This document shows positions 9,678 to 64,000 of a stretch of DNA of 64,000 bases, piece after piece. Under the pieces are notes generated by a model. That model searched no databases, was not told the origin of the DNA, and saw nothing but the letters and a program-made list of their open reading frames with translations. A program made the translations under genes and the position numbers. The stretch comes from a virus (lineage: Duplodnaviria; Caudoviricetes): the IMG/VR virus record IMGVR_UViG_2513237329_000013, positions 32,001 through 96,000 of that record; one strand, 5' to 3'. The first letter of the stretch is position 1, and every line of letters begins with the position of its first letter.

Positions 9678-9734
9678 GTCTCAACCTCCTTTCCATAAAA
9701 CAAAAAACTCAGAGCAAAGCACTCTGAGTTCATT

Positions 9735-13113: not shown

Positions 13114-13189
13114 TGGTCTGAGTAGCTGGTCTCGAACCAGCGACCTCGTGATCCCAAATCACGCGCTCTACCTACTGAGCTATACCCAG
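13114..13189 (-). tRNA. tRNA-Pro(UGG)
   Basis: Loop TTTGGGA, CCA. Confidence 0.95.
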
Positions 13190-13199
13190 ATTTGCTTTT

Positions 13200-13251
13200 G
13201 AGAGAATCAGTAAAAGCAGCATCGCCACGAGCAGGCTTCTCTCCTGATGCC
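13200..13251 (-). ncRNA. Minimal HDV-like (theta-type) self-cleaving ribozyme
   Basis: P1 GGCATC/GATGCT (G1-U wobble), P2 GAGAGAA/TTCTCTC, P3 GCC/GGC, L3 TGCTCGT, J4/2 CTGA; abuts the tmRNA 3' end. Confidence 0.8.
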
Positions 13252-13252
13252 G

Positions 13253-13667
13253 TGGAGCAGAGGGGAATCGAACCCCTGTCCGAAATTCCTACATGAACAA
13301 AACATTCTTACGCAATAGATAACAATTTGCATTTTGTCCTAAGACGAGCTGCGTGGTGCTATCAACCAGCTCAGAGCCGCACCAGTTTTGCGACCTCCAC
13401 CACCTTATTTCTTTTCACAGTGATAAGGAAAACTGCAATGTCAGTCTGATTCTTTATTACCGCAGATGCTTACCCAGACTAAAAGTGCATCGTTTAAGCA
13501 TTCATCAACTGCAATTAAGCAGCAATACCCTCCATAACAGCATACAGAGCGGGATGAATCATAACCACAATAGAATCGTTGTCATTTCATTTTTGTTTGA
13601 GCCTTAGGCGGTCTCCATACCTGCGTATTTCGTCCTATCAAAACCCCGTCGAACCCATTACTGCCCC
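13253..13667 (-). ncRNA. ssrA: tmRNA
   Basis: 5' GGGGCAGTAATGGGTTCGAC, 3' T-arm GGTTCGATTCC, acceptor with G3-U70, tag ORF ending IAA-stop; CCA not encoded. Confidence 0.95.
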
Positions 13668-13680
13668 ATATTTAATTTTA

Positions 13681-13756
13681 TGGTCGGAGTAGAAAGAGTC
13701 GAACTTTCGACCTCACGATTATCAGTCGTGCGCTCTACCTACTGAGCTATACTCCG
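13681..13756 (-). tRNA. tRNA-Ile(GAU)
   Basis: Loop CTGATAA, CCA. Confidence 0.95.
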
Positions 13757-14841: not shown

Positions 14842-15472
14842 GAAAATTCAATACTTGAATCATACCTATCATTGAGCCTTCGCTCTACCTCCATTACCTT
14901 CTCACAATGTTCAGCCACCAGGGAGATAAGTCTGAGCTTCAAGGAGCGACCTTTAACTTCTTACCCCAGCCTTACACAGCGAACTGTATTAGGCCAATTC
15001 CTGCGCGGGATTGTTTACCCGCAAATTTCACCGTTCGTTCAGAAAATTTGATAGTTTCATACAATTTCTTTTTCATCATATCGTATTAAAGATCAAACAC
15101 CAAAACTGTCCTACGGCTACTTTAACCGACGACTTTCGTTATAGTCGAGTTTCTTCGACATCAAGACAGGAGCGCATTGTTGGCATTTCCTCTGGTTGTA
15201 CTGGTTGCCACGCCAGTATCCTTGAGGATTATTCTCCACAGGAGCGTCTATTGCTGCGCCCGAAAGTTCCGTGCTTTTTGTAGCGATAACTCTTGGCAAC
15301 ACACATTTTCGTTGGCAGTTTCCGCCTCCCAGCAATACATCACTGCATCACTGCCGTCTGGACAATAAAAGGTATCCCTCGTAAATCCAGCGGGAACTAT
15401 TGTGCGTCTCGGAGTGCTGACACACTTTATTCACCGAGTTAATCATAAGCATGATTCAAATATTGAATTTTC
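14842..15472 (-). ncRNA. Large ornate ncRNA, probably ROOL family
   Basis: ~630 nt with no convincing ORF; 28-bp terminal helix needing G-U pairs on the minus strand; phage tRNA-array context. Confidence 0.7.
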
Positions 15473-15589: not shown

Positions 15590-15618
15590 AGTATAACATA
15601 TAAGCACACGGTTGTCAA
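15590..15618 (-). promoter_or_regulatory. SigmaA-type promoter of the tRNA island
   Basis: TTGACA-17 nt-TATACT. Confidence 0.75.
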
Positions 15619-15756: not shown

Positions 15757-16041
15757 TCATTCTCGAATACTTCTTAAAAGTTCTGCTCCGGACTTAAACA
15801 CGACATTCTGGAACTCCGGAACAACGATGCTCTCTTTCGTCACTGGATGAAGAGCTGGATGCGACTTATACTTTTTCACATCAAATGTTCCAAACCCATA
15901 AATCGAAACTCGATCTCCGTTTCTAAGAGCATTCGCAATTTCATCAAAGATATCGTCAACGATATCCTTGACCATATACTTCTTATACGCCTTATTCTTC
16001 TGAGCAAGCGTATTTACCAAATCTGCTTTATTGATATTCAT
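15757..16041 (-). CDS. hup: HU family DNA-binding protein
   Basis: NKADLV...GDRVSIYGFGTF...HPVTKE.I.VP...V.FK.G..L. Confidence 0.92.
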   Translation of the reverse strand: MNINKADLVNTLAQKNKAYKKYMVKDIVDDIFDEIANALRNGDRVSIYGFGTFDVKKYKSHPALHPVTKESIVVPEFQNVVFKSGAELLRSIRE

Positions 16042-17276
16042 GCTGATGTATCGCTCCTTTGCGGGCGATAACGAGTCGTATCAAAGTCAATATCGTAAAA
16101 TGCTTTGACACCATTATAATCACAGACGCAAACCAACTGTTGCTGCGCTCCATAAATGCGCTTTCCAACACAGTAGTCATCCATACCGAGAAAGCTGCCA
16201 GCCATAATCGTTTTCACGCCTTGAACACTATCGGTCTTATTGTGATGCAAATGACCTGAAAGAATGGCGTACACAGGTTCTTTTGCCATTGTCTGAAGCG
16301 ATTGAACTTTTCCAGCAGATCCATCATAATCGCCATGTACACCAAGATAAGTCTTGCCGCGAATATCAAGCAAATACATCGTATCGTCGATCTTTCTGTA
16401 ATGATCAAACGACACATTCTCAAAAGATTGTAGACGAGCTTTCAAATACCACTCAACTAAATCGTCAAGACGCTCATGAATCGAGGCAACATCTTTCTCT
16501 TCAAGCCGAGAATGATTCCCAGCAACAGAAGAAAAGTAAACATTCTTAAAGTACCGGCTTAATGTAGACAAAAACTCCGCAAGAAGTTCAGACACTCCAA
16601 CGACCTGTTGAATAACATTTTCTCTGTTCGACACGGCAATAGACTTATGAATATTTCCGCTAATCAAGTCTCCATTTGCCCATACATAACAACTTTCCGA
16701 TCCATGCAAGGCGGAGATTTCAAGGATGCGATCCAGATATTCATTAAGAAGTTGCACACAAACATCGGAATTATAGTAGTTCCAATAGTTGTCCACACAC
16801 GCTCCAAAATGCAAATCGTTTAAGCTTACAAGCAAATCGCTCCCGCTCGACTCCATTACACATGGAACATAGTCAAGCCGAGGAATTACACCAGAAGTAA
16901 TTGCCCTCTCAAAAATATCAGAGTTTTCATCCTTGCGAGCCAGGTCACGCACAACTTTATTAAGAGCATTTCTCTGGTCGAAAAACCGCTGGCGTTCTTT
17001 CTTGAATTCAAGCATCTTCTGCTCAATCTCGTCAAGATATGCACTTCCGAGATCTTGCGTAGCTTTCTGCTTGAAGTATTTCATCACATGATAGCCAGAA
17101 TACGGCGTTACATTCGCCGCTTTACGAAGGCTGTCGTAATGAACATCAAGACCAAGCAGGTCAACGATATCCGACCACTCTAAGTCAGAAGGGTTCTGCT
17201 CAACCTTTATTTCAATCAGTCGTAGGCCATACTCATAACTATCTTCGTTTTCAAGCTGTTTATATTTTGGATTCAA
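16038..17276 (-). CDS. Metallophosphoesterase (YonJ-like)
   Basis: DLHFG, GDLI, GNH, HGD, GHLH motifs. Confidence 0.88.
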   Translation of the reverse strand: MNPKYKQLENEDSYEYGLRLIEIKVEQNPSDLEWSDIVDLLGLDVHYDSLRKAANVTPYSGYHVMKYFKQKATQDLGSAYLDEIEQKMLEFKKERQRFFDQRNALNKVVRDLARKDENSDIFERAITSGVIPRLDYVPCVMESSGSDLLVSLNDLHFGACVDNYWNYYNSDVCVQLLNEYLDRILEISALHGSESCYVWANGDLISGNIHKSIAVSNRENVIQQVVGVSELLAEFLSTLSRYFKNVYFSSVAGNHSRLEEKDVASIHERLDDLVEWYLKARLQSFENVSFDHYRKIDDTMYLLDIRGKTYLGVHGDYDGSAGKVQSLQTMAKEPVYAILSGHLHHNKTDSVQGVKTIMAGSFLGMDDYCVGKRIYGAQQQLVCVCDYNGVKAFYDIDFDTTRYRPQRSDTSA

Positions 17277-18003: not shown

Positions 18004-20778
18004 TCATGCGACGCTACGCTGACGTCGTTTCTTCTCACGCTCATAATTGCGAATATGGATAGCCTGACAGTCATCGCAGCGCTTCTTATTTTTCACGATA
18101 CCGTCTACCTCAAACTCTTTTCCACAATCAATACACCGCAGTTTCTTTTTGCCGAGTGGGTGATATCCAGAGCAGCTCGTACATACCTTTTGCTGCGGTG
18201 AAAGAGGAACAAAACGCTCTCCACATTTCTTGCACTGAATAGAACCATCTGGGATATTTCGCTTGAGGTTTTCCAGAACGATATCACCAAAGCACATCCA
18301 GAAAACATTTTTCCTACGGCTATTCTTACTATGAAATAGATATTTCACAAGAATGTCGCAAACATCTAAGCGCTCAAGACAAATCTCGTCGAATTGCTTC
18401 AAGATATTGTCCCGAATATATGCAAAGTTCGAGTCATCATCATAAAAGCTGATCGAATAGCGATACTGCTTTTCCACATCATTGTACAGGTCAGTCACAG
18501 ACGATAGTAACTCAACCTGTTTCATCGGGTTACTAAGCATATACTGATATCTGAAGACACCAATATTCTTCGCGGCAAAAGACATCCGCTTATTAGGAAC
18601 GATGTGTTCAAGCTGATTCACAACACTATTGTTCATTCGCTGAACCTGAAATTTTGTTTTCTTTTTAGCGTGGATAAAAAAATGCGGCGCTTTCATACTC
18701 GTAATTCTTGCAAGACGAGCATTGATTTCATCTGGTCGAGTTGGCTTATACAGCGTCTTGGCATAGTCGATACAGAAGTTATTCTCCATACATAAGATTT
18801 TAATTGCTTCTATGTCAACATCCTCACCGTTCCAAATCTTCGTAATATCATTGCTAATAACACCGATATTGCCACCAGTCCATGCGGCGCGAAGCCCTTT
18901 GAAAATTTCCTCTGGTGTAATCGTAACAGCGCCAGCCTTTGCCATCTCGTAGTATAAAGGAACGATTCCTTCCATATTGCGCTCAGCAATAGACACAAGT
19001 AAGGAATCAGCGCATACGAGACTTTTATCTCCGTCGCAATCAAATTGTAGGATCTTTGAAATTAGATCATGACAGCTCGTATAGATAGCATTTTGAGAAA
19101 ACCACTTTTTCGTTGCACTGGTTACAACATTTTTACGAACAGCATGTTCACGATATAAGTGGGGTGAACGCAGACAGTCCAATTTACTCACTGTGCGATA
19201 AAGATAGCAAGACACCTCTCCATCTGCAAGCAAGCCAACAGGACTGCGATTTCCAAGAAACAGCCATTCGCAGAAAGCATAGAGATCTGGAATCAAGAAC
19301 ATATACTTTGCGCTCAAATCAATCTTTGCTGCTCTTGCCTCAGTAACAAGATTCTTCTTGATTTGCCGTAGCATCTCTTTTGTGTATGGGTCGGAGAGCA
19401 ATTCCGGATAGATACTAAGACACTCCTGAAAAGCATTCTTATTGCGATACTGTGTAGAAGCCCCGAACACATCCAGCATAGTATTCTTATCCGATGCAAT
19501 TTTAGCAATTTTGTCAATCGTCTTTCCAGCAAGCTGCTCAAGTTCATCTGTACTCAAATCTGTGAGTGTTTGAAGCATTTGATAGTTAAGCTTTGCATCA
19601 GGAATGAAGTCCTCTTCCTCATTACACTTACCGACAGTGCATCCATTTGCTAAAAACAAATCAATGTACTCTTGCCAATTCGCGTAATACTTGTACATCT
19701 TAAATTGACTTTTTGTAAAAATGACCTGGATACCCTCTGCGATTACATCATGTTCAAAACCATAGATGTCTGTTACCAAACCATGATTTACGGACGGATC
19801 GCGTTCGTTTGATTCTAAGATAAACTTATCAAACGGGAATACAGCAAGAAGCCCTTTTACCCACGGAAGACGAACCATAGTGTTTTTTGCATTACAAGAG
19901 GGAAGAACCATTCCGCAGCCATCCGTATGTGTAATTGGAATCTCCATATCTCTGCGCTCAACACTGTATGTTTTGTGATCAATAAAATCAACAGTTCCAC
20001 CAACCATCGTTTCCATATCATCTACAACGATAGTCTTTCTAATATCGAAATCTTCCCACAAATCAGTTGCGCTATTGCACAGTGCAAGATACGCCAGATA
20101 CTTATTGATATTGATTCCACCAAGCTCGTTGATTTTTTGAACGCTCAGTCCACACATAATGGTTTTTTGATACTTCTCCCAAACTCTTTCCTTAATGAAA
20201 ACAGTTTTCTTTGTTCTGATCTGTCCAGCAGATGCCGTAAAACAAATGTAGCGTTCTCCGTTAAAGGTATACCCATTTAGGATAAGATCTTCAATCACAT
20301 CGAAATAATATGTGCGAATAACCATGAAATCGTCATACAGCTTTCCTGTTTCCATGCCAAGTGTTCTTGTAAGCATCGACTCAAAAACAGAAATCACATT
20401 CTTATCAACCACATATTCAGTCCGTAACTCACGTTGCGAGCGATGTGCTTGAAGAAGTGATACAAGTTCAGACTTCTTAATCTTAATCATCTGGTTCGTA
20501 CCGCGAATTTCTTTCGCAATCTGTTTTACACGGGAACTATCCATCGCAACAGAAATCGGATCTGACTTTCCCATGCCATACAATTTACGAAACTGAGATT
20601 CAGCCTTCTCTTGTGTTATTTCTCCAGCACACAGCCGCTCAATAATTTCTCGCTCTGATTTTAATTTCGATTTTGAAGAGCAGTGCTTATTGATCTCAAC
20701 CTCAAGTGCCTTTTCTTCGTCGGTGTAAAACGCACTCGTGTCAAAACTATAAATATGGATTTGCCGATCAAGACTAAT
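18004..20778 (-). CDS. yonO: Single-subunit DNA-dependent RNA polymerase, YonO family (ATT start inferred)
   Basis: RSPHLYREH and catalytic FDCDGD; frame open to 20778 encoding QIHIYSFDTSAFY, resembling the YonO N-terminus; C-terminal Zn ribbons. Confidence 0.9.
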   Translation of the reverse strand: MSLDRQIHIYSFDTSAFYTDEEKALEVEINKHCSSKSKLKSEREIIERLCAGEITQEKAESQFRKLYGMGKSDPISVAMDSSRVKQIAKEIRGTNQMIKIKKSELVSLLQAHRSQRELRTEYVVDKNVISVFESMLTRTLGMETGKLYDDFMVIRTYYFDVIEDLILNGYTFNGERYICFTASAGQIRTKKTVFIKERVWEKYQKTIMCGLSVQKINELGGININKYLAYLALCNSATDLWEDFDIRKTIVVDDMETMVGGTVDFIDHKTYSVERRDMEIPITHTDGCGMVLPSCNAKNTMVRLPWVKGLLAVFPFDKFILESNERDPSVNHGLVTDIYGFEHDVIAEGIQVIFTKSQFKMYKYYANWQEYIDLFLANGCTVGKCNEEEDFIPDAKLNYQMLQTLTDLSTDELEQLAGKTIDKIAKIASDKNTMLDVFGASTQYRNKNAFQECLSIYPELLSDPYTKEMLRQIKKNLVTEARAAKIDLSAKYMFLIPDLYAFCEWLFLGNRSPVGLLADGEVSCYLYRTVSKLDCLRSPHLYREHAVRKNVVTSATKKWFSQNAIYTSCHDLISKILQFDCDGDKSLVCADSLLVSIAERNMEGIVPLYYEMAKAGAVTITPEEIFKGLRAAWTGGNIGVISNDITKIWNGEDVDIEAIKILCMENNFCIDYAKTLYKPTRPDEINARLARITSMKAPHFFIHAKKKTKFQVQRMNNSVVNQLEHIVPNKRMSFAAKNIGVFRYQYMLSNPMKQVELLSSVTDLYNDVEKQYRYSISFYDDDSNFAYIRDNILKQFDEICLERLDVCDILVKYLFHSKNSRRKNVFWMCFGDIVLENLKRNIPDGSIQCKKCGERFVPLSPQQKVCTSCSGYHPLGKKKLRCIDCGKEFEVDGIVKNKKRCDDCQAIHIRNYEREKKRRQRSVA

Positions 20779-41544: not shown

Positions 41545-41591
41545 GCAAATCAATATACCAGTGGGTAGTTATAGTGTATTGGAGGTGTAGC

Positions 41592-44500
41592 ATGAAATAC
41601 AAATATTTAGGCCAGTCGATTCCGCAAGATAGCCGCCGTGAATTAAATAATAAGATTCTTTATCTTGTAGATAACGATTTGGTTGAGTCTTCCGGTATTA
41701 CCTGCGAGGATATCTATAACGCTTACACTGGCGATGGTGGATTGCACGGTCTGCGCTATTCTGATTACAACAGCTATTCCGAATACTCCAGCGCAAAGAA
41801 AGAAATTGAAAACGGTCAATTTTTCACACCGGATAGCGTGTGCAAGTTTATCATGGATTGTCTCTCGTTGAGCAATCAGGATGTTTTTGCAGATCTGACA
41901 TGTGGGATGGGCAATTTTTTCAATTACGCACCGATGGAGGCAAACGCTTATGGTTGCGAATTGGATGCGAAAGCTTATAAGGTTGCACATTATCTATATC
42001 CAAAAGCAAATTTGACCTGTGGAGATATTCGCAGTTATGAACCTGGTATCAAGCTGGACTATGTTATTGGGAATCCTCCTTTCAATCTTCGTTGGTGGGT
42101 GGATGGCGCACAGATTCTTTCTCAGCTTTACTATTGCCAGAAAGCCGCAGCTTTGCTAAAGCCTATGGGCATTATGGCGCTTGTTGTGCCGAAGTCATTT
42201 CTTGCGGATGATTTTAGTGATAGCGGATTGATTAAGGAGATGGAAAAGCATTTTAGTTTCCTTGGTCAGTTTATGCTTCGCGCAGATACTTTCGCATCAA
42301 TGGGAGTTGCCGATTATGAGACAAAGGTGCAATTTTGGCAGCGTAATAGTGATATGGATAGCTGGAAACGGAATCCGTACTCCACAGAGATGACAATGCA
42401 AGTGGATTGTATGAACGCAGCTATGGTCAGAAAGGTTCGTGAACAGATCGTAGCGGATGCTCAGGCGGTATTCGTGAAAAATCGTTCGCACATTTTACTG
42501 GAACTCGCAAGAGATCATGATTCATCTGCTGAGTTTTTGTACAATGTGAAGAAATACCTATACGCAATTAAAACGCACCCAAATCTCAAAGAAAAATACA
42601 CGAAATGCTGTGAATATCTCAATCGTTACTATACGGAGAAACAGCCTGAAAGTATGTCTTATGAAGAGTGGTGTCGCGTCCGCTTGACTGAGGCAAAAGT
42701 ATTGGCTTATTTACGGAATGTCGTAAAGTATCAGCACCCCGCTCAGTACGAGGATAAAATTTGTCTTGTAAAACGAGACTATGATCTTGTGTATAAGGCA
42801 TATAGCCCCAAAATGGCGCGTCAATTATCGGATGAGATGAAAACGCCTACTCCGATTTATGATATTGCCATCAGTGAAGAAGATACAGAGCGATATGGAA
42901 GATACGCTCGGCTTTTGCGTCGCAAACAGCACGAATACAGTATTGAACAGCAAAAGTTTTCTGAAATGATTGAAGATGCTGACATTAAGTCGTGGCTGGA
43001 TGGTTTTGTTCTGCATGATGAAGAAAATGAAGAAGATATTATGCTGAACAATTTGCAAAAACACGACATCAATCTTGTTCTACAAAAGCGATATGCTCTT
43101 TTGCAGTGGGAACAGGGCTGCGGTAAGACTCTTGCTGGTATTGCTATTGGGCGTTATAGGATGGAACAGAAGAATGCGTTTTGCACGTTTGTTGTCTCTT
43201 CTGCAATCTCAATCAAGAACACCTGGGATGTCATGCTCCCTAATTTCGGAGTCAGATATGTTATGGTGAACAAGCTCGTTGATCTTGACAAGGTGCAGCG
43301 TGGAGATTTTGTCCTTATTACGCTGAACAAGCTTGGCAAATATCGTAAACAAGTAAAGCGCTGGGTGAGGATTCATAATCAAAATGTCGCACTTTGCTTT
43401 GATGAGAGCGATGAGATGACGAATCCATCCAGTTTACGCACGAAGTCTGTTCTGGACTGCTTTCGACGCTGCCGTTTTAAGCTTGAGATGACCGGTACAA
43501 GTACACGGAATAATATCAGCGAGTTTGCGCCGCAGTTGGAATTGGCCTATAACAATTCGTTCAACATGATTTCCTGGTGCAATACAATCTATCATTATGA
43601 TCGAGCCAGCAAGAAAGACGGCGTTGAAGAAGGTCTCCATGTATATGGGAATCCGTATTATGGACAGCCTATCCCCGCATATCACAAGGGGTATAACCTT
43701 TTTGCAGATTCTCACCTTCCGGAAAAGATCACGGTCTTTGGCGTTGGACAGAGAACACAGGATATTTATAATGCGGACGAACTGGATAACATTCTTTCCA
43801 GATTTGTGATTACACGGACGCTGGAAGAAATATCAGGCAGAGATATCAAGCGTATCCACCAAGTCCCCGTTCGTTTTACGGAAAGCGAACGCGCGGTTTA
43901 TACCAAAGCGATTGAAGAGTTTCATGTCATGCGTGGTAATTATTTTGCTTCGACTGGAAATTCTCGCAAGGATTCCATGATGCGGCTTATTCAGCAAATT
44001 ACGCTATTGCTCAGAATCAGCGCAGCCCCTAATACAATTCGTGAGTATGACGGAGGTTTGCCGACGAAAATTGCAAAAGTGATTGAAATGCTGCAGAGCA
44101 TGAGCGGTGAGATCGTAGCAATCGGTGTACGGCACAAGGTTGTTGTTGATGCTTATGCAAAGGCAATTCGAGAGATCATGCCAGACAGACCTCTGTTTGT
44201 TGTTACGGGATCTACCACGACGCTTGCAAAGCGTAGAGCATTGCGTAAGACCTTAAAAGAAAGCAAGAATGGAATCTTACTTTGTACACAGCAAAGCTTG
44301 CCAAGTTCTGTGAGCTTTGAATATGTGGATAAGGTAATAATTCCGGAGCTGCACTACAACAATTCTCGGATGAGCCAGTTTTATATGCGTTTTATTCGCT
44401 TTACTTCTAAGCGGATGAAGGATATCTATTTTGTTACCTATCTTGGTAGCATTGAGTCGAACCAGATGCAGATGGTGCTTGCCAAGGAAAAGATCAATAT

Positions 44501-44645
44501 GTTCATGCGAGGGAAAGATACCGACTTGGATGAAATCTATAATCGGTTTGGTGTGGACTATAATCTTCTGTCTGCTCTGATGTCACGCGAGGTGGATGAG
44601 AACGGGAAATTCCATATCAGGTGGGGCGAACAAGAAATTGCATGA
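41592..44645 (+). CDS. N6-adenine methyltransferase-SNF2 helicase fusion (DarB-like)
   Basis: GQFFTP, DLTCGMGNF, GNPPF; QGCGKT, DESD, TGT, motif VI QFYMRF.R. Confidence 0.85.
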   Translation: MKYKYLGQSIPQDSRRELNNKILYLVDNDLVESSGITCEDIYNAYTGDGGLHGLRYSDYNSYSEYSSAKKEIENGQFFTPDSVCKFIMDCLSLSNQDVFADLTCGMGNFFNYAPMEANAYGCELDAKAYKVAHYLYPKANLTCGDIRSYEPGIKLDYVIGNPPFNLRWWVDGAQILSQLYYCQKAAALLKPMGIMALVVPKSFLADDFSDSGLIKEMEKHFSFLGQFMLRADTFASMGVADYETKVQFWQRNSDMDSWKRNPYSTEMTMQVDCMNAAMVRKVREQIVADAQAVFVKNRSHILLELARDHDSSAEFLYNVKKYLYAIKTHPNLKEKYTKCCEYLNRYYTEKQPESMSYEEWCRVRLTEAKVLAYLRNVVKYQHPAQYEDKICLVKRDYDLVYKAYSPKMARQLSDEMKTPTPIYDIAISEEDTERYGRYARLLRRKQHEYSIEQQKFSEMIEDADIKSWLDGFVLHDEENEEDIMLNNLQKHDINLVLQKRYALLQWEQGCGKTLAGIAIGRYRMEQKNAFCTFVVSSAISIKNTWDVMLPNFGVRYVMVNKLVDLDKVQRGDFVLITLNKLGKYRKQVKRWVRIHNQNVALCFDESDEMTNPSSLRTKSVLDCFRRCRFKLEMTGTSTRNNISEFAPQLELAYNNSFNMISWCNTIYHYDRASKKDGVEEGLHVYGNPYYGQPIPAYHKGYNLFADSHLPEKITVFGVGQRTQDIYNADELDNILSRFVITRTLEEISGRDIKRIHQVPVRFTESERAVYTKAIEEFHVMRGNYFASTGNSRKDSMMRLIQQITLLLRISAAPNTIREYDGGLPTKIAKVIEMLQSMSGEIVAIGVRHKVVVDAYAKAIREIMPDRPLFVVTGSTTTLAKRRALRKTLKESKNGILLCTQQSLPSSVSFEYVDKVIIPELHYNNSRMSQFYMRFIRFTSKRMKDIYFVTYLGSIESNQMQMVLAKEKINMFMRGKDTDLDEIYNRFGVDYNLLSALMSREVDENGKFHIRWGEQEIA

Positions 44646-50799: not shown

Positions 50800-50910
50800 G
50801 CAGAGGTAGCTCAGTCGGTAGAGCATCAGACAAAAAATGTGCTAAGCATTAGCACTAACAGCAATGTTAAAGGAATCCGAGTGTCGGAGGTTCGAGTCCT
50901 CCCCTCTGCG
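50800..50910 (+). ncRNA. tRNA-like RNA with RCAGC insert in the anticodon loop, copy H
   Basis: Canonical acceptor, D and T arms; GTGCTAA/TTAGCAC-TA-ACAGCAAT inserted. Confidence 0.8.
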
Positions 50911-50997: not shown

Positions 50998-51112
50998 GCC
51001 AGGGTAGCTCAACTGGTAGAGCGCGTAATAATGCGACTTGTTAAGCCGCTTACAGCAAATTTCTTTTGGTCTGTTAAACCCGTGGTTGCAGGTTCGATTC
51101 CTGCCCCTGGCT
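50998..51112 (+). ncRNA. tRNA-Asn(GUU)-like RNA with RCAGC insert in the anticodon stem, copy I
   Basis: CG-[hairpin-TT-ACAGCAAA]-GGT-CTGTTAA-ACCCG; canonical D and T arms. Confidence 0.8.
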
Positions 51113-51198: not shown

Positions 51199-51316
51199 AC
51201 GGCAGTGGTGAAGCGGTAACACAGCAGCCATACAAATGCGAAAAGTGGATTTTCGCTAACAGCTATTTCACACTCCAAGCTGCCAATCGTAGGTTCGATT
51301 CCTACCTGCCGTTCCA
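51199..51316 (+). ncRNA. tRNA-Gly(UCC)-like RNA with RCAGC insert in the anticodon loop, copy J
   Basis: GCAGC-[GCGAAAA/TTTTCGC-TA-ACAGCTAT]-CTCCAA-GCTGC; ends U73-CCA. Confidence 0.8.
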
Positions 51317-51450: not shown

Positions 51451-51490
51451 TTAAGACACAAACAGCATCGAGTGTGAAATGGTGTCTTGA
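51451..51490 (+). ncRNA. RCAGC-motif minimal copy L in the DUF2828 leader
   Basis: AAGACAC-AA-ACAGCATC...GTGTCTT, 53 nt before the start codon. Confidence 0.65.
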
Positions 51491-51543
51491 AGGCTATTTC
51501 AAGCGAAAAGAAATTAGTTAAACAATTCAAGGAGGAAGTAGGT

Positions 51544-53088
51544 ATGAGTGGTTTTATGTCTGCTATGAAAAGCACTTTGAACGATGAGTTCAATGTTTCT
51601 GTTACTGAGAACGGTGCTATTGGCTATCGCACTACTGGCAAGGAACTGTTGGATCTCAACTTTGCCGTTGCATCTCTTCGTAAGGCATCTCCGAGCGATA
51701 TTGCAAATCGTTTCGTCAGAGCGTTTTTCGAGGATAAGATCACGGCAATGAAATGGCTGTTCTTTGCGCGTGATGTTCGTGGAGGTCTTGGTGAACGCCG
51801 TTTGTTCCGCATTGTGTTTCAGCGCATGGCTGAGGAAAATCCGGAATACATCATTCCGCTGCTTCCTCTCGTTCCTGAGTATGGACGCTATGATGACCTG
51901 TGGTGTTTGTTTGATACAAAGCTTGCACCTAATGTACTGAACATCATTGCGCAGCAGCTCCGCGAGGACATTCAGAACTTGAGTGATGGCAATGGTATTT
52001 CTCTTCTCGCAAAGTGGCTTCCGTCTGCGAATGCTCATTCCGCTGACGCAAAGCGTTATGCTAAGCAGATTTACAAGTTTATGGGCATTTCTGAGCGCGA
52101 CTACCGTAAGGTGCTGTCCAAGCTGCGTTCTAAGCTGGATATCGTGGAGAAGAAAATGTCCGAAAAGCGTTGGGATGAGATTGCGTATGAAGCTGTCCCG
52201 TCTCGTGCAAATCTGATTTACAACTCTGCGTTCCTTCGTAACGACGAAGATCGTCGCCGTGATTTCCTATCCCGTTTGGAAAAGGGCGAAACGAAAATCA
52301 ATGCGTCTACGCTTTTCCCGCATGACATTGTTGCAAAGTATAGCGATGGTTGGCGTGGTCTGAAGCCTACGGATAAGACGCTTGAAGCTCTTTGGAACGC
52401 GCTTCCCGATACCGTAAACGGATGCGGCAATACAATTGTTGTTGCGGATGGCAGCGGCAGTATGACCGTGAATGTTGGCGGCGGCAATGTTACTGCGCTG
52501 GCTGTGGCAAACGCGCTTGCAATTTATTTCGCAGAGCGTTCCTCTGGTCAGTTCAAGGATAATTACATTACATTTTCTGAGCGTCCTCAGCTCGTCGATT
52601 TGAGTAAGGGTAAGAATCTCCGTGAGAAGATTCAGATTGCGCTTAAACACAGCGAGGTAGCAAACACAAATATCGAAGCGGTGTTTGATCTTATCCTGAC
52701 TACGGCAAAGAAAAACAATATGGAACAGAGCGACCTTCCCGCAAACATCCTTATTATCTCCGATATGGAGTTTGACTACTGCGCAACATCGAATGGCGGA
52801 AGCCGATATACTCGTGGTAGTGTTGATTCTCGTCTGTTTGACAAGATTGCAAAGCGCTACGAGGACGCTGGGTATAAGTTACCAAGGCTTGTGTTCTGGA
52901 ATGTGAATAGCCGCACGAATACTATTCCTATTAAGGAAAACGAGATGGGAGTTGCGCTTGTAAGCGGTTTTAGCCCGAACATCGCAAAGATGGTGATGAG
53001 CGGTCAAACCGATCCGTATGAGTGCTTGCTTGAAACGCTGAACTCTGATCGTTATAAGCCTATCGGTGACGCTCTGGAAAATCAGTAA
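51544..53088 (+). CDS. DUF2828 family protein (helical domain + vWA, Ro60/TROVE-like)
   Basis: ARDVRGGLGER, YGRYDD, AKWLPS, MIDAS DGSGSM, T, SDMEFD, VFWNV; RBS AGGAGG. Confidence 0.88.
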   Translation: MSGFMSAMKSTLNDEFNVSVTENGAIGYRTTGKELLDLNFAVASLRKASPSDIANRFVRAFFEDKITAMKWLFFARDVRGGLGERRLFRIVFQRMAEENPEYIIPLLPLVPEYGRYDDLWCLFDTKLAPNVLNIIAQQLREDIQNLSDGNGISLLAKWLPSANAHSADAKRYAKQIYKFMGISERDYRKVLSKLRSKLDIVEKKMSEKRWDEIAYEAVPSRANLIYNSAFLRNDEDRRRDFLSRLEKGETKINASTLFPHDIVAKYSDGWRGLKPTDKTLEALWNALPDTVNGCGNTIVVADGSGSMTVNVGGGNVTALAVANALAIYFAERSSGQFKDNYITFSERPQLVDLSKGKNLREKIQIALKHSEVANTNIEAVFDLILTTAKKNNMEQSDLPANILIISDMEFDYCATSNGGSRYTRGSVDSRLFDKIAKRYEDAGYKLPRLVFWNVNSRTNTIPIKENEMGVALVSGFSPNIAKMVMSGQTDPYECLLETLNSDRYKPIGDALENQ

Positions 53089-61459: not shown

Positions 61460-62899
61460 ATGTACGCAGCATATGTAACTCGTATTAAGAATTTGCGCAA
61501 ACATTCAAACGCGGATCGACTTCTCTGCGGTGAATGTTTTGGCAATACGGTAATTGTGGGCTTGGATACAAAGCCAGAAGAGCTTGGTGTTTATTTCCCC
61601 GTAGATGGCAAGCTTGGAACTGAGTATGCGGTGAAGAATGACCTGCTTCGGCGTAAGGATGAAAACGGTAAGCCGGCTGGTGGTTATCTCGATCCTGAAA
61701 AGCGCAATATTAAGGCGTTGAAGCTTCGTGGCGAAAAGAGCGATGGCTTGTTTATGCCGTTGTCCAGTTTGAACGGGTTTACGGATATTGCAAAGCTCCG
61801 TGAGGGCGATGTAATTACCATTTTGAATGGTGTCACAATTTGTGAGAAGTATATCCCACGTCGTAAGAAGAGTACCATTATGGTTGGGGGGGGTAGGACT
61901 CGTAAGCATCACGATCCTATTGCCCCGCTCTTTGCGGAACATGCTGACACGGAACAGCTTGCATATAACCTCAGCGCATTTCACCAAGGCGATCTTGTTG
62001 AGATTACTTTGAAAATGCACGGTACATCTCAGCGAACCGGATATCTGCCAACGCTTAAAGGATATAAGAGGACATTGCTTGATAAACTCCTACATCGCGT
62101 TGGTTCTCCGATTTATAATTGGGGATATGTAACTGGCACTCGTCGTGTTGTTCTGGATGATTTTGACGGCGGCTTCTATGGCAGCAATGCTTTCCGTGAA
62201 CAGCATAGCAAGGTTTTTGAAGGTAAGCTTCATAAGGGCGAAACCGTGTACTATGAAGTCGTTGGCTTTACGCAAGACAAGCAGCCTATTATGGCATCTT
62301 GCGACAATAAAAAAGTCGGTGATAAGGAATTTGTTAAACAATACGGAGAAAAGACAGTGTTTAGCTATGGTTGCTATCCGGACGGTGTAAAGGAAGTAAC
62401 AAATCCGAAAATTACATACGCAACAGTAATGATTGGCGATACCTCTTTTACAGCAAATGAGATTACGGAATATGAATCTGCTCCGCAGTCTGATTTTTAT
62501 GTGTATCGAATGACGATGACAAATGAGGATGGCGATGTTGTCGAATACACACCTGACTTTATGCGTTATCGTTGTGAGCAGATGGGTGTTAAGTGCGTTC
62601 CGCTATTCGCTCGATTCATCATTCCGGATTACATCCAGCTTCCTGATGCTGTTGGATCTCCGATGGCTGTCAATGCTGGCGAATATGTCAAGGAGATTGC
62701 CGAAAACTTCTATGATGGTGCAGACCCGATTGGTAAGTCGCATGTCCGAGAGGGCGTTGTTTGCCGTATCGTAAACCGCCCAAAGTTTACAGCATATAAG
62801 CACAAGAATTTTGCATTCAAGGTACTTGAGGGAATTGTAAAGGATATTGCGTCTGCTCCGGACATGGAAGAAGCGCAGGATGAGACAAGCGCCGCGTAA
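61460..62899 (+). CDS. RNA ligase (Rnl2/DRB0094-like) with N-terminal tRNA-binding OB fold
   Basis: HSNADRL, LRGEKSDG, motif I KMHGTS, YYEVVG, FYVY, REGVV, YKHKN. Confidence 0.85.
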   Translation: MYAAYVTRIKNLRKHSNADRLLCGECFGNTVIVGLDTKPEELGVYFPVDGKLGTEYAVKNDLLRRKDENGKPAGGYLDPEKRNIKALKLRGEKSDGLFMPLSSLNGFTDIAKLREGDVITILNGVTICEKYIPRRKKSTIMVGGGRTRKHHDPIAPLFAEHADTEQLAYNLSAFHQGDLVEITLKMHGTSQRTGYLPTLKGYKRTLLDKLLHRVGSPIYNWGYVTGTRRVVLDDFDGGFYGSNAFREQHSKVFEGKLHKGETVYYEVVGFTQDKQPIMASCDNKKVGDKEFVKQYGEKTVFSYGCYPDGVKEVTNPKITYATVMIGDTSFTANEITEYESAPQSDFYVYRMTMTNEDGDVVEYTPDFMRYRCEQMGVKCVPLFARFIIPDYIQLPDAVGSPMAVNAGEYVKEIAENFYDGADPIGKSHVREGVVCRIVNRPKFTAYKHKNFAFKVLEGIVKDIASAPDMEEAQDETSAA

Positions 62900-63018
62900 C
62901 GACATTACGCATCTTATCCATCAATGCTGAACGGTGTGCTGGAATATGCACGAATTTGTAGTTCCAGCACACTGCAGGCATATTGCCAGAGATTGTATTT
63001 TGAAAGAGAGGTGCTGTG

Positions 63019-63840
63019 ATGAGTGACAGAGTAAAGATTATGAAACGGCTTTCTGAACACCTCGAAGCAGTAAGAGACAAACACCCTGAGTGGGTTGGTA
63101 TTTTTCTTCAAGGTTCACAAAACTACAACTTAGACTATGAGGGAAGCGATATTGATTCCAAGCTGATTGTCCTCCCTTCGTTTGAAGATTTTGTTTTGAA
63201 CAAAAGACCATATAGTTACACACACATCATGGAAAACGATGAACATGTAGATGTTAAGGATATTCGTCTGATGCTCGATTGCTTCAAAAAGCAGAATGTA
63301 AATTTTGTTGAGATTCTTTTTACGCCGTACCGTATCTTGAATCCAAAGTACGAAGCTTTGTTCCAGCCGATTCTTGATATTGCAGAGAGAGTCGGTCGAT
63401 ATAACAACTATGCCGCATTGAATTGCATGGTAGGAATGGCGCTCGAAAAGCAAAAGGCATTGTGCCACCCATATCCTGCAACAAAAGACAAGATTGATAA
63501 ATACGGGTTCGATAGCAAACAGTATCATCACATTGAGCGTCTTTATGAATTCATGCAGCGTTGGCTTAATGGCGAGCCATATCGTGATTGCCTCGTTTCT
63601 AAACAAGTGGAGCGTCTTAGAGAAATCAAGCTTTATATTAACTGCGATCTTACAACGGCGCAGGTCAATTCGGATAGAATCGTATCTGAGATGAAATCAA
63701 TCAAGGACACTTATATGCAGCAGAATCCAGTTGTAGTAGACCGTGAGGTTGATTCGGTTTTCAATAAAGTTCTGCTTGATTTATTTAAGTTCAACTTCCA
63801 GTGCGAGCTTGGTAACGACTCGCCCAATAAAAAGGAGTAA
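63019..63840 (+). CDS. Pol-beta-type nucleotidyltransferase
   Basis: LQGSQNY.LD...SDIDSK, N.NFVE.L. Confidence 0.82.
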   Translation: MSDRVKIMKRLSEHLEAVRDKHPEWVGIFLQGSQNYNLDYEGSDIDSKLIVLPSFEDFVLNKRPYSYTHIMENDEHVDVKDIRLMLDCFKKQNVNFVEILFTPYRILNPKYEALFQPILDIAERVGRYNNYAALNCMVGMALEKQKALCHPYPATKDKIDKYGFDSKQYHHIERLYEFMQRWLNGEPYRDCLVSKQVERLREIKLYINCDLTTAQVNSDRIVSEMKSIKDTYMQQNPVVVDREVDSVFNKVLLDLFKFNFQCELGNDSPNKKE

Positions 63841-63844
63841 GAAT

Positions 63845-64000
63845 ATGTCTATCTTTTTTATGATGGTAGGTCTTCCGTACAGCGGAAAATCTGTTTATGC
63901 GGAGGGGCTGCGAGAGAAGTTCGGCGCAGAGATTCATTCCAGCGATGCAATTCGAGCAGAGATTCTTGGAAATGTACAGGATCAGACAAACAATCAGATT
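63845..64000 (+). CDS. Polynucleotide-kinase-like P-loop protein (partial)
   Basis: MVGLPYSGKS...SSDAIR; truncated by the window end. Confidence 0.8.
   Translation, partial: MSIFFMMVGLPYSGKSVYAEGLREKFGAEIHSSDAIRAEILGNVQDQTNNQI

Follow-up and report, generated by a model that had tools for sequence, protein, structure and literature searches.

HDV-like ribozymes cleave at their own 5' end, so that the cut makes the 3' end of the upstream RNA and the ribozyme itself stays on the RNA that lies downstream. The maturation of tmRNA of the E. coli type proceeds by an endonuclease cut and exonuclease trimming to an encoded CCA, and the protein RNases involved leave no cyclic phosphate. An encoded 3'-terminal CCA is common in tmRNA genes, not universal. 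Among the closest described systems are the theta ribozymes, minimal HDV-like ribozymes that gut phages carry behind many of their tRNAs, at the tRNA 3' end (Kienbeck et al. 2024, Nat Commun, PMC10879173). In that study, the tRNAs were called with tRNAscan-SE, the tRNA-associated subgroup consisted of ribozymes with a cut site no more than 5 nt away from where such a tRNA ends on its 3' side, and 95.5% of the ribozyme-linked tRNAs had no CCA. An enzyme of the PolyA_pol kind was present in 20.6% of the ribozyme-bearing phages as compared to 0.08% of all phages (PMC10879173). Cleavage was assayed for four theta ribozymes, all with a C-C/G-G P1.1 and none with the G-C/C-G form and a 5-nt linker; the fastest of them, number 0046, has a 6-bp P1 with G1-U, as derived here from the published primers (PMC10879173). 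Another relevant group are the RlaP enzymes, which are reported to extend the 3'-OH ends of RNA by one or two nucleotides (preprint doi 10.64898/2025.12.29.696909). Here we describe a phage locus in which a theta-class ribozyme stands directly behind a tmRNA gene and very probably makes the 3' end of the tmRNA.

The window that was analysed is a stretch of 64,000 nucleotides, corresponding to bases 32001-96000 of an IMG/VR virus record of 127 kb that is classed as a provirus and estimated to be 96% complete. It carries an array of RNA genes on the minus strand, in the order tRNA-Met, tRNA-Thr, ROOL RNA, tRNA-Ala, tRNA-Ile and tmRNA, followed by 17 further tRNAs. The array is headed by a promoter-like site, the best scoring one (15590-15618, minus strand), which was recognized by its match to the consensus (11 of 12 positions, with an extended -10 element), and a sequence scan placed a terminator-like hairpin with a T run past the last tRNA (9705-9731, minus strand). 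Next to the tmRNA lie tRNA-Ile (13681-13756, minus strand), which has an encoded CCA and is separated by 13 nt from the 5' end of the tmRNA that follows it, and tRNA-Pro (13114-13189, minus strand), which starts 10 nt downstream of the ribozyme. The ROOL RNA inside the array is full-length (14855-15462, minus strand; Rfam 394 bits). ROOL RNA also lies beside the array in the relatives L016, L022 and L036, and it occurs in unrelated arrays with orphan theta ribozymes (L053, L054). The 127-kb phage genome yielded no suppressor tRNA. Judged by the record names, relatives come from human-gut metagenome assemblies.

Several other genes in the window are of interest for RNA metabolism. A gene at 18004-20583 (minus strand) encodes an 859-aa protein that matches the Pfam RdRP family PF05183 (E 4e-15) and phrog_8308. 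In all likelihood this protein is a phage RNA polymerase of the two-barrel, YonO-like type, and it could be the transcriber of the RNA-gene array. On the plus strand, three tRNA-like RNAs of 111-115 nt (50800-50910, 50998-51112 and 51199-51313) score 47-53 bits with the Rfam tRNA model and were not called by ARAGORN; they have an insert of about 45 nt in place of the anticodon arm, and CCA is not encoded. Directly downstream follows a Ro60-like gene (51487-53088, plus strand) with DUF2828, DUF7788 and VWA domains, which belongs to phrog_850 ('RNA-binding protein'), and together these RNAs and this gene look like a phage Ro/Y-RNA (YrlA-like) set. A further plus-strand gene (41574-44645) encodes a protein of 1023 aa in which an N6-adenine methylase domain is fused to a SNF2/ResIII helicase domain.

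The tmRNA gene occupies positions 13252-13667 of the minus strand, with its 5' end at 13667. Its match to Rfam RF00023 is of full length (model positions 1-374, span 13250-13667) and reaches 86.5 bits against a cut-off of 47. The acceptor stem is formed by 7 bp, 13667-13661 with 13260-13254, and includes the G3-U70 pair; the discriminator A (13253) is followed by C74 (13252). Translation gives a tag reading frame of 22 codons (13515-13583, minus strand) that ends with Ala-Ala and is followed by a stop codon; according to the Rfam alignment, the resume codon lies at 13583. Thus, the features expected of an RF00023 member are present, i.e. the full-length match, G3-U70, the discriminator A and the Ala-Ala-stop tag frame, with the exception of an encoded CCA: the discriminator is followed by C-G-G where CCA would stand. 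All 21 tRNAs of the array, as well as the two tRNAs elsewhere in the window, do have an encoded CCA. ARAGORN gave no call on this tmRNA, and a blastn search against 50,697 phage records returned tRNA matches only and no relative of the tmRNA.

Behind the tmRNA lies a theta-type minimal HDV-like ribozyme of 52 nt (13200-13251, minus strand), as indicated by a descriptor parse, by near-identical published theta sequences and by covariation. In the parse, P1 has 6 bp, of which the first, G1-U, is a wobble pair (13251-13246 with 13223-13218, G1 being 13251), and is followed by two unpaired J1/2 bases (13245-13244), a P2 of 7 bp (13243-13237 with 13206-13200) and a P3 of 3 bp (13236-13234 with 13226-13224) that closes the 7-nt loop L3 (13233-13227). 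Two L3 bases, 13232-13231, pair with 13217-13216 to give a P1.1 of 2 bp (G-C/C-G), and a linker of 5 nt (13215-13211) replaces P4. The J4/2 segment C-U-G-A (13210-13207) fits C-N-R-A, with 13210 as the candidate catalytic C. All pairs of P1, P2, P3 and P1.1 are standard, and the element displays the characteristics of the theta class, namely a fold without P4, a C-N-R-A segment with its catalytic C and a paired G at position 1. The 6-bp P1 with G1-U is no defect, since the fastest assayed theta ribozyme has the same arrangement. An alternative P1 of 7 bp starting at C13252 was rejected because it would destroy P1.1. The predicted cut lies between 13252 and 13251, with G1 located 1 nt past the tmRNA discriminator. 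A sequence-only reading of the same DNA had claimed a complete minimal nested double pseudoknot that starts 1 nt after the discriminator of a tmRNA without encoded CCA, in an array of which the 21 tRNAs all encode it; every listed element was recovered in the sequence, and the contrast in CCA is borne out.

A theta-type descriptor modelled on the published delimited hits matched once in the window when both strands were scanned and once in the whole 127-kb genome, in both cases at 13200-13251. The P3/L3 core is expected by chance 0.33 times per window, as determined with 300 dinucleotide-preserving shuffles, and the combination of core, P1.1 and P1 occurred in none of these shuffles. The HDV-type families of Rfam gave no match at 13150-13300, even at E values up to 10, which is to be expected for a ribozyme that lacks P4. 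The nested minimum-energy fold of the element is no better than that of shuffled sequences (z = -0.04), a figure that is uninformative here because pseudoknots are not scored. We conclude that 13200-13251 is a genuine feature that represents a known ribozyme class in a new context.

The relation to the published theta ribozymes is close. The exact window sequence was not found among the entries listed from the supplements of PMC10879173, but three of the hits that were filed there as "non-tRNA-associated" are very similar: number 1831 differs from the window ribozyme only at one of the two J1/2 positions, number 1783 has substitutions in J1/2 and at a single position of J4/2, and number 1794 has a different P1 that is fully complementary. 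Since number 1831 is in the published list and J1/2 is unconstrained, the window element fits the final search motif of those authors, and the membership of the theta class proposed in the sequence-only reading is thereby supported. Because tRNAscan-SE misses tmRNA, ribozymes of this kind were filed as orphans in PMC10879173. The predicted cut at the window locus, 1 nt past the discriminator of the tRNA-like domain of a tmRNA, agrees with the spirit of the 5-nt rule for tRNA association but falls outside the definition of that paper, which requires a tRNA called by tRNAscan-SE. At least the orphan numbers 1761, 1783, 1794 and 1831 abut tmRNAs, and together they account for 763 listed occurrences.

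The possibility that most orphan theta ribozymes are linked to tmRNA was considered and rejected, because unknown RNAs that end with a hairpin precede the two orphans found to be most abundant in viral contigs; a third orphan was not found in the viral contigs. Number 1754, the most abundant orphan, and number 1756, the third most abundant one, are not located behind tmRNAs. Number 1754 (L053:3363-3420 and L054:1079-1136) follows a stable hairpin at which some 300 nt of unannotated sequence, lying between tRNAs and ROOL RNA, come to an end, and number 1756 (L055-L058) follows a hairpin similar to that of 1754. Ribozymes may also make the 3' ends of the RNAs that precede here, which would then be additional unknown RNAs of this type.

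Relatives of the window element were collected with a ribozyme-only pattern that comprised P3, L3, a free P1 strand, P1.1, the linker and J4/2. In viral contigs this pattern matched 10 times, and each match is a near-identical copy that follows the same tmRNA. In metagenome contigs it gave 18 loci, 15 of which abut the 3' end of a tmRNA whereas the remaining three are free-standing; there was no match in species-representative genomes. The published variants 1831, 1783 and 1794, as well as a P1 variant (L045), are all located behind tmRNAs. In the relative L038 the tmRNA is only 74% identical to that of the window, with compensatory changes in the acceptor and T stems, and the ribozyme is 86.5% identical, with changes restricted to compensated P1 pairs and unpaired bases. 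This tmRNA keeps the G3-U70 pair, although another pair of its acceptor stem has changed in a compensatory way, and its tag frame is conserved.

A gap-free alignment of nine distinct sequences was used to examine covariation. Standard pairs were observed in 96% of the cells, as compared to 86% in shuffles and at most 69% in any slid register, and nine pairs had changed on both sides against 2.4 in shuffles, none of 500 shuffles reaching nine. P1 is completely paired in all nine sequences, with compensation in four of its six pairs and an invariant G1-U. P2 is invariant among the tmRNA-linked copies and compensated in two of the free-standing relatives, and the invariance of P3 and P1.1 is uninformative because the search pattern fixed those bases; among tmRNA-linked copies, direct support by covariation is thus confined to P1. 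A pattern in which the catalytic C was replaced matched none of the viral contigs, as compared to the 10 matches obtained with C. A MAFFT alignment of all lineages (A2) was excluded from the counts because unequal linkers caused misalignment of P1 and P2.

The same junction was also approached from the side of the tmRNA. A second scan required a T-arm of the tmRNA type, followed after 22-34 nt by the P3/L3 core, and left P1, P1.1, P2 and C-N-R-A unconstrained. Beyond the window family, it uncovered nine further phage tmRNA lineages. Rfam recognized a full-length tmRNA in eight of these, the ninth (L027) being cut by the end of the locus, and all nine have a complete ribozyme with P1, P1.1, P2 and C-N-R-A. 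Eight of the further lineages were parsed automatically, whereas L019 and a locus from a metagenome-assembled genome (MAG; L050) were parsed by eye. The C-N-R-A segment is present at J4/2 in 11 of the 11 lineages that were retrieved without a constraint on that segment. In the nine further lineages the ribozyme begins on the base next to the discriminator, and none of the nine has an encoded CCA, even though the gap in the pattern permitted one. Throughout the tmRNA lineages, 0 or 1 nt separates the discriminator from the ribozyme. One of them, L023, scores 46.2 with RF02682 (HDV-F-prausnitzii; cut-off 44), and the base that follows its discriminator is aligned with model position 1. The sequence-only reading had linked the ribozyme to tmRNA on the basis of one locus; the 15 of 18 metagenome loci and the nine further lineages lend support to this link.

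The lineages show some variation. Six of them (L019, L021, L023, L024, L026 and L027) have A1-U in place of the otherwise near-universal G1, and because many tmRNA-linked ribozymes start with A1, descriptors that fix G1 will miss or under-count them. Several of the A1-U ribozymes retain a P4 hairpin. L018 and L025 have orphan number 1761 as their ribozyme, and the L025 contig carries in addition the experimentally validated number 0009 behind a tRNA-Leu. In the species-representative genomes, the T-arm and core pattern matched one Erysipelotrichaceae MAG contig (L050), with a good HDV-like ribozyme behind a tmRNA-like 3' end for which no Rfam tmRNA score was obtained. A match to an archaeal tRNA had no ribozyme fold and was taken as a chance hit.

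Comparison with the neighbouring tRNAs is also instructive. In the window family, all 69 tRNAs have an encoded CCA (23/23, 22/22, 19/19 and 5/5) and none is followed by a ribozyme core, whereas the tmRNA alone lacks CCA and alone has a ribozyme. In the stretches that were fetched from other phages, the neighbouring tRNAs are mostly without CCA and a ribozyme core follows one of 46, a count that is descriptive and does not serve as a test since the loci were selected for the tmRNA-ribozyme pair.

It is conceivable that the ribozyme serves to cut the polycistronic transcript of the RNA genes in general, or serves the maturation of tRNA-Pro, and that its position behind tmRNA is incidental. The location in a dense array, with tRNA-Pro only 10 nt away, would agree with such a role, as would the theta ribozymes that stand behind hairpin-ended RNAs other than tmRNA in similar arrays. 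Nevertheless, we regard this as very improbable: an HDV-like cut defines the 3' end of the upstream RNA and leaves the ribozyme on the downstream one, the junction is exact in all tmRNA lineages whatever follows, the L019 ribozyme precedes an apparent ribosome-binding site and start codon instead of a tRNA, and none of the 69 tRNAs of the window family was provided with a ribozyme.

Another explanation accepts cleavage and holds that the product is a decoy tmRNA, which would bind host SmpB or ribosomes and thereby block trans-translation by the host. The phage itself has neither SmpB nor a CCA-adding enzyme, and the tmRNA database paper cites phage DS6A as a recorded case of a phage tmRNA-like RNA that inhibits the host system. 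On the other hand, the tag frame is intact up to Ala-Ala-stop and is conserved in the relative with a 74% identical tmRNA (L038), in which G3-U70 was kept while the acceptor stem changed in a compensatory way elsewhere. Conservation of the tag frame and of G3-U70 argues for charging and tagging of the phage tmRNA, so that the chances of the decoy explanation appear slight.

The least probable explanation, that the fold is an inactive relic, a weak terminator or a protein-binding structure and that the 3' end is made by host RNase Z or exonucleases, could point to the terminator-like hairpin with a short T run that was scored at 13228-13216, to the folding z-score obtained with a method that cannot score pseudoknots, to the missing Rfam HDV match and to the restriction of the four published assays to the C-C/G-G type of P1.1, but a 5-bp hairpin leaves P1 and P2 unexplained, P1 covaries against a background of retained G1-U, P1.1 and C-N-R-A, and no copy with a replaced catalytic C turned up in viral contigs.

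Contigs from RNA libraries touch on the junction as well. Some gut RNA-library contigs span the tmRNA-ribozyme junction, although assembled contigs cannot prove an RNA end. Short and very abundant contigs from the runs X1, X2 and X4 match only 13252-13285, which are the 34 bases at the 3' end of the tmRNA, and differ from it beyond that point; they come from other tmRNAs with which this 3' end is shared. In one RNA run, the sequencing adapter abuts the base equivalent to 13252, without CA, where again contigs cannot prove the RNA end.

If the theta-class ribozyme makes the 3' end of the tmRNA, a maturation route can be envisaged, of which we infer the cleavage, the cyclic phosphate, the healing and the CA addition from the known chemistry of HDV-like ribozymes. 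During transcription, the array transcript would fold behind the tmRNA into the double pseudoknot without P4, and self-cleavage between 13252 and 13251 would free a tmRNA that ends with A73-C74 and carries a 2',3'-cyclic phosphate. The ribozyme, with a 5'-OH, would stay on the tRNA-Pro precursor, where RNase P may remove it from the 5' side of tRNA-Pro. The cyclic phosphate at C74 would have to be opened and removed, and charging by alanyl-tRNA synthetase would require the prior addition of C75 and A76. Healing and CA addition could be carried out by host enzymes, or by a phage kinase-HD protein and an RlaP-like nucleotidyltransferase. A CCA-adding enzyme of the PolyA_pol kind, SmpB, RtcB and a 2H phosphoesterase are absent from the phage genome, so that these steps would rest either on host enzymes, which may be sufficient, or on the assumed activities of the two phage proteins. 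Among the 10 other virus records with a tmRNA-ribozyme pair, many of which are fragments, a PolyA_pol-type enzyme is present in three, which resembles the enrichment described for ribozyme-bearing phages in PMC10879173.

The phage candidates for RNA repair are encoded by adjacent plus-strand genes about 49 kb from the ribozyme. The first encodes an RNA ligase (61460-62899), identified by phrog_968 (E 2.4e-64), with weak matches below the cut-offs to Pfam RNA_ligase and TIGR02306. The second encodes a Pol-beta-type nucleotidyltransferase of 274 aa (63016-63840; phrog_388, E 6e-11) with the conserved G-S...D-x-D motif. The match of this protein to RlaP family PF10127 remains under the cut-off (E 0.028, 14.6 bits vs 23), but 5 of 16 close homologues with 54-68% identity do match this family, the best with E 9.7e-6; a match in the PDB was not obtained, either by sequence or by profile. 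By these similarities it is a candidate distant relative of RlaP that could add bases to a healed 3' end. The third gene, of which only the start lies in the window (63743-64000) and which runs 759 bases past the window end, encodes a 338-aa protein with a kinase domain (AAA_33) and an HD-phosphohydrolase domain. Its polynucleotide-kinase-like domain and HD domain make it a candidate end-healing enzyme. The repair row (61460-64000, plus strand) continues to G000:96759, and a PAPS-reductase-like gene is next. A Metallophos_2 protein encoded beside the array (16038-17276) was rejected as a healing enzyme, since it belongs to the SbcD-type exonuclease family (phrog_284).

One may speculate that the ribozyme-made end is a deliberate gate and more than a low-cost means of cutting, with the tmRNA staying uncharged until the phage kinase-HD protein has opened the cyclic phosphate at C74 and the RlaP-like transferase has supplied the two bases that are lacking. 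We consider this rather unlikely. If it were true, the phage would time or privatise ribosome rescue and tagging, and ribozyme-made ends would be a natural substrate of the RlaP-type 'repair' cassettes.

The sequence-only reading knew of no described association of theta ribozymes with tmRNA, and our literature searches agree. Among the publications searched, none joins "theta ribozyme" and "tmRNA", and publications that name tmRNA and HDV-like elements, judged mostly by title, revealed no link. In a microbiome-RNA paper that names both tmRNA and a self-cleaving ribozyme the two are not linked, the word 'ribozyme' does not occur in the 2025 tmRNA database paper, and 'tmRNA' does not occur in the theta ribozyme paper (PMC10879173). 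The ribozyme class and its mechanism are already known, whereas tmRNA as its substrate and context is new. Also new are the finding that tmRNA-linked ribozymes already sit in the published orphan list and the restriction of the ribozyme to tmRNA in the window phage family.

These results have several implications. Part of the published pool of "orphan" theta ribozymes gains a function, and ribozyme-made 3' ends are extended from tRNAs to tmRNA. The locus points to a route of tmRNA maturation that would start at a 2',3'-cyclic phosphate, after which end healing and completion of the CCA must follow. Furthermore, the window family offers a clean natural contrast between tRNAs and tmRNA, which makes the question of why it is tmRNA that carries the ribozyme directly testable.

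It is worthwhile to compare the locus with the known systems. As in RlaP repair cassettes (doi 10.64898/2025.12.29.696909), genes for a ligase, for an RlaP-like nucleotidyltransferase and for a kinase-HD protein follow one another in the phage, and of the one or two nucleotides that RlaP is reported to add, two is the number that would be missing on the cleaved tmRNA; the role usually proposed for such cassettes is the repair of nuclease-damaged tRNA, however, whereas the connection to tmRNA is one that we infer here. With tmRNA maturation of the E. coli type the locus shares the required product, a free CCA end that can be charged by AlaRS via G3-U70, the difference being that CCA is not encoded in the window tmRNA and that the end is predicted to be made by RNA and to carry a cyclic phosphate. 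The ribozyme of F. prausnitzii (RF02682) has the same topology and is cut at the place predicted here, the 5' end of P1, whereas the window copy has no P4 and matches no HDV family of Rfam. The resemblance to the theta ribozymes (PMC10879173) includes the double pseudoknot without P4, the conserved features of L3 and J4/2, an upstream gene without CCA, and a location in a Caudoviricetes genome, with the cut site where a tRNA-shaped acceptor/T-arm module has its 3' end. The window ribozyme departs from them in its P1.1, which is G-C/C-G instead of the usual C-C/G-G, and in its upstream RNA, which is a tmRNA that keeps one C (C74) before the cut, in a phage of which the ordinary tRNAs all have CCA and none has a ribozyme.
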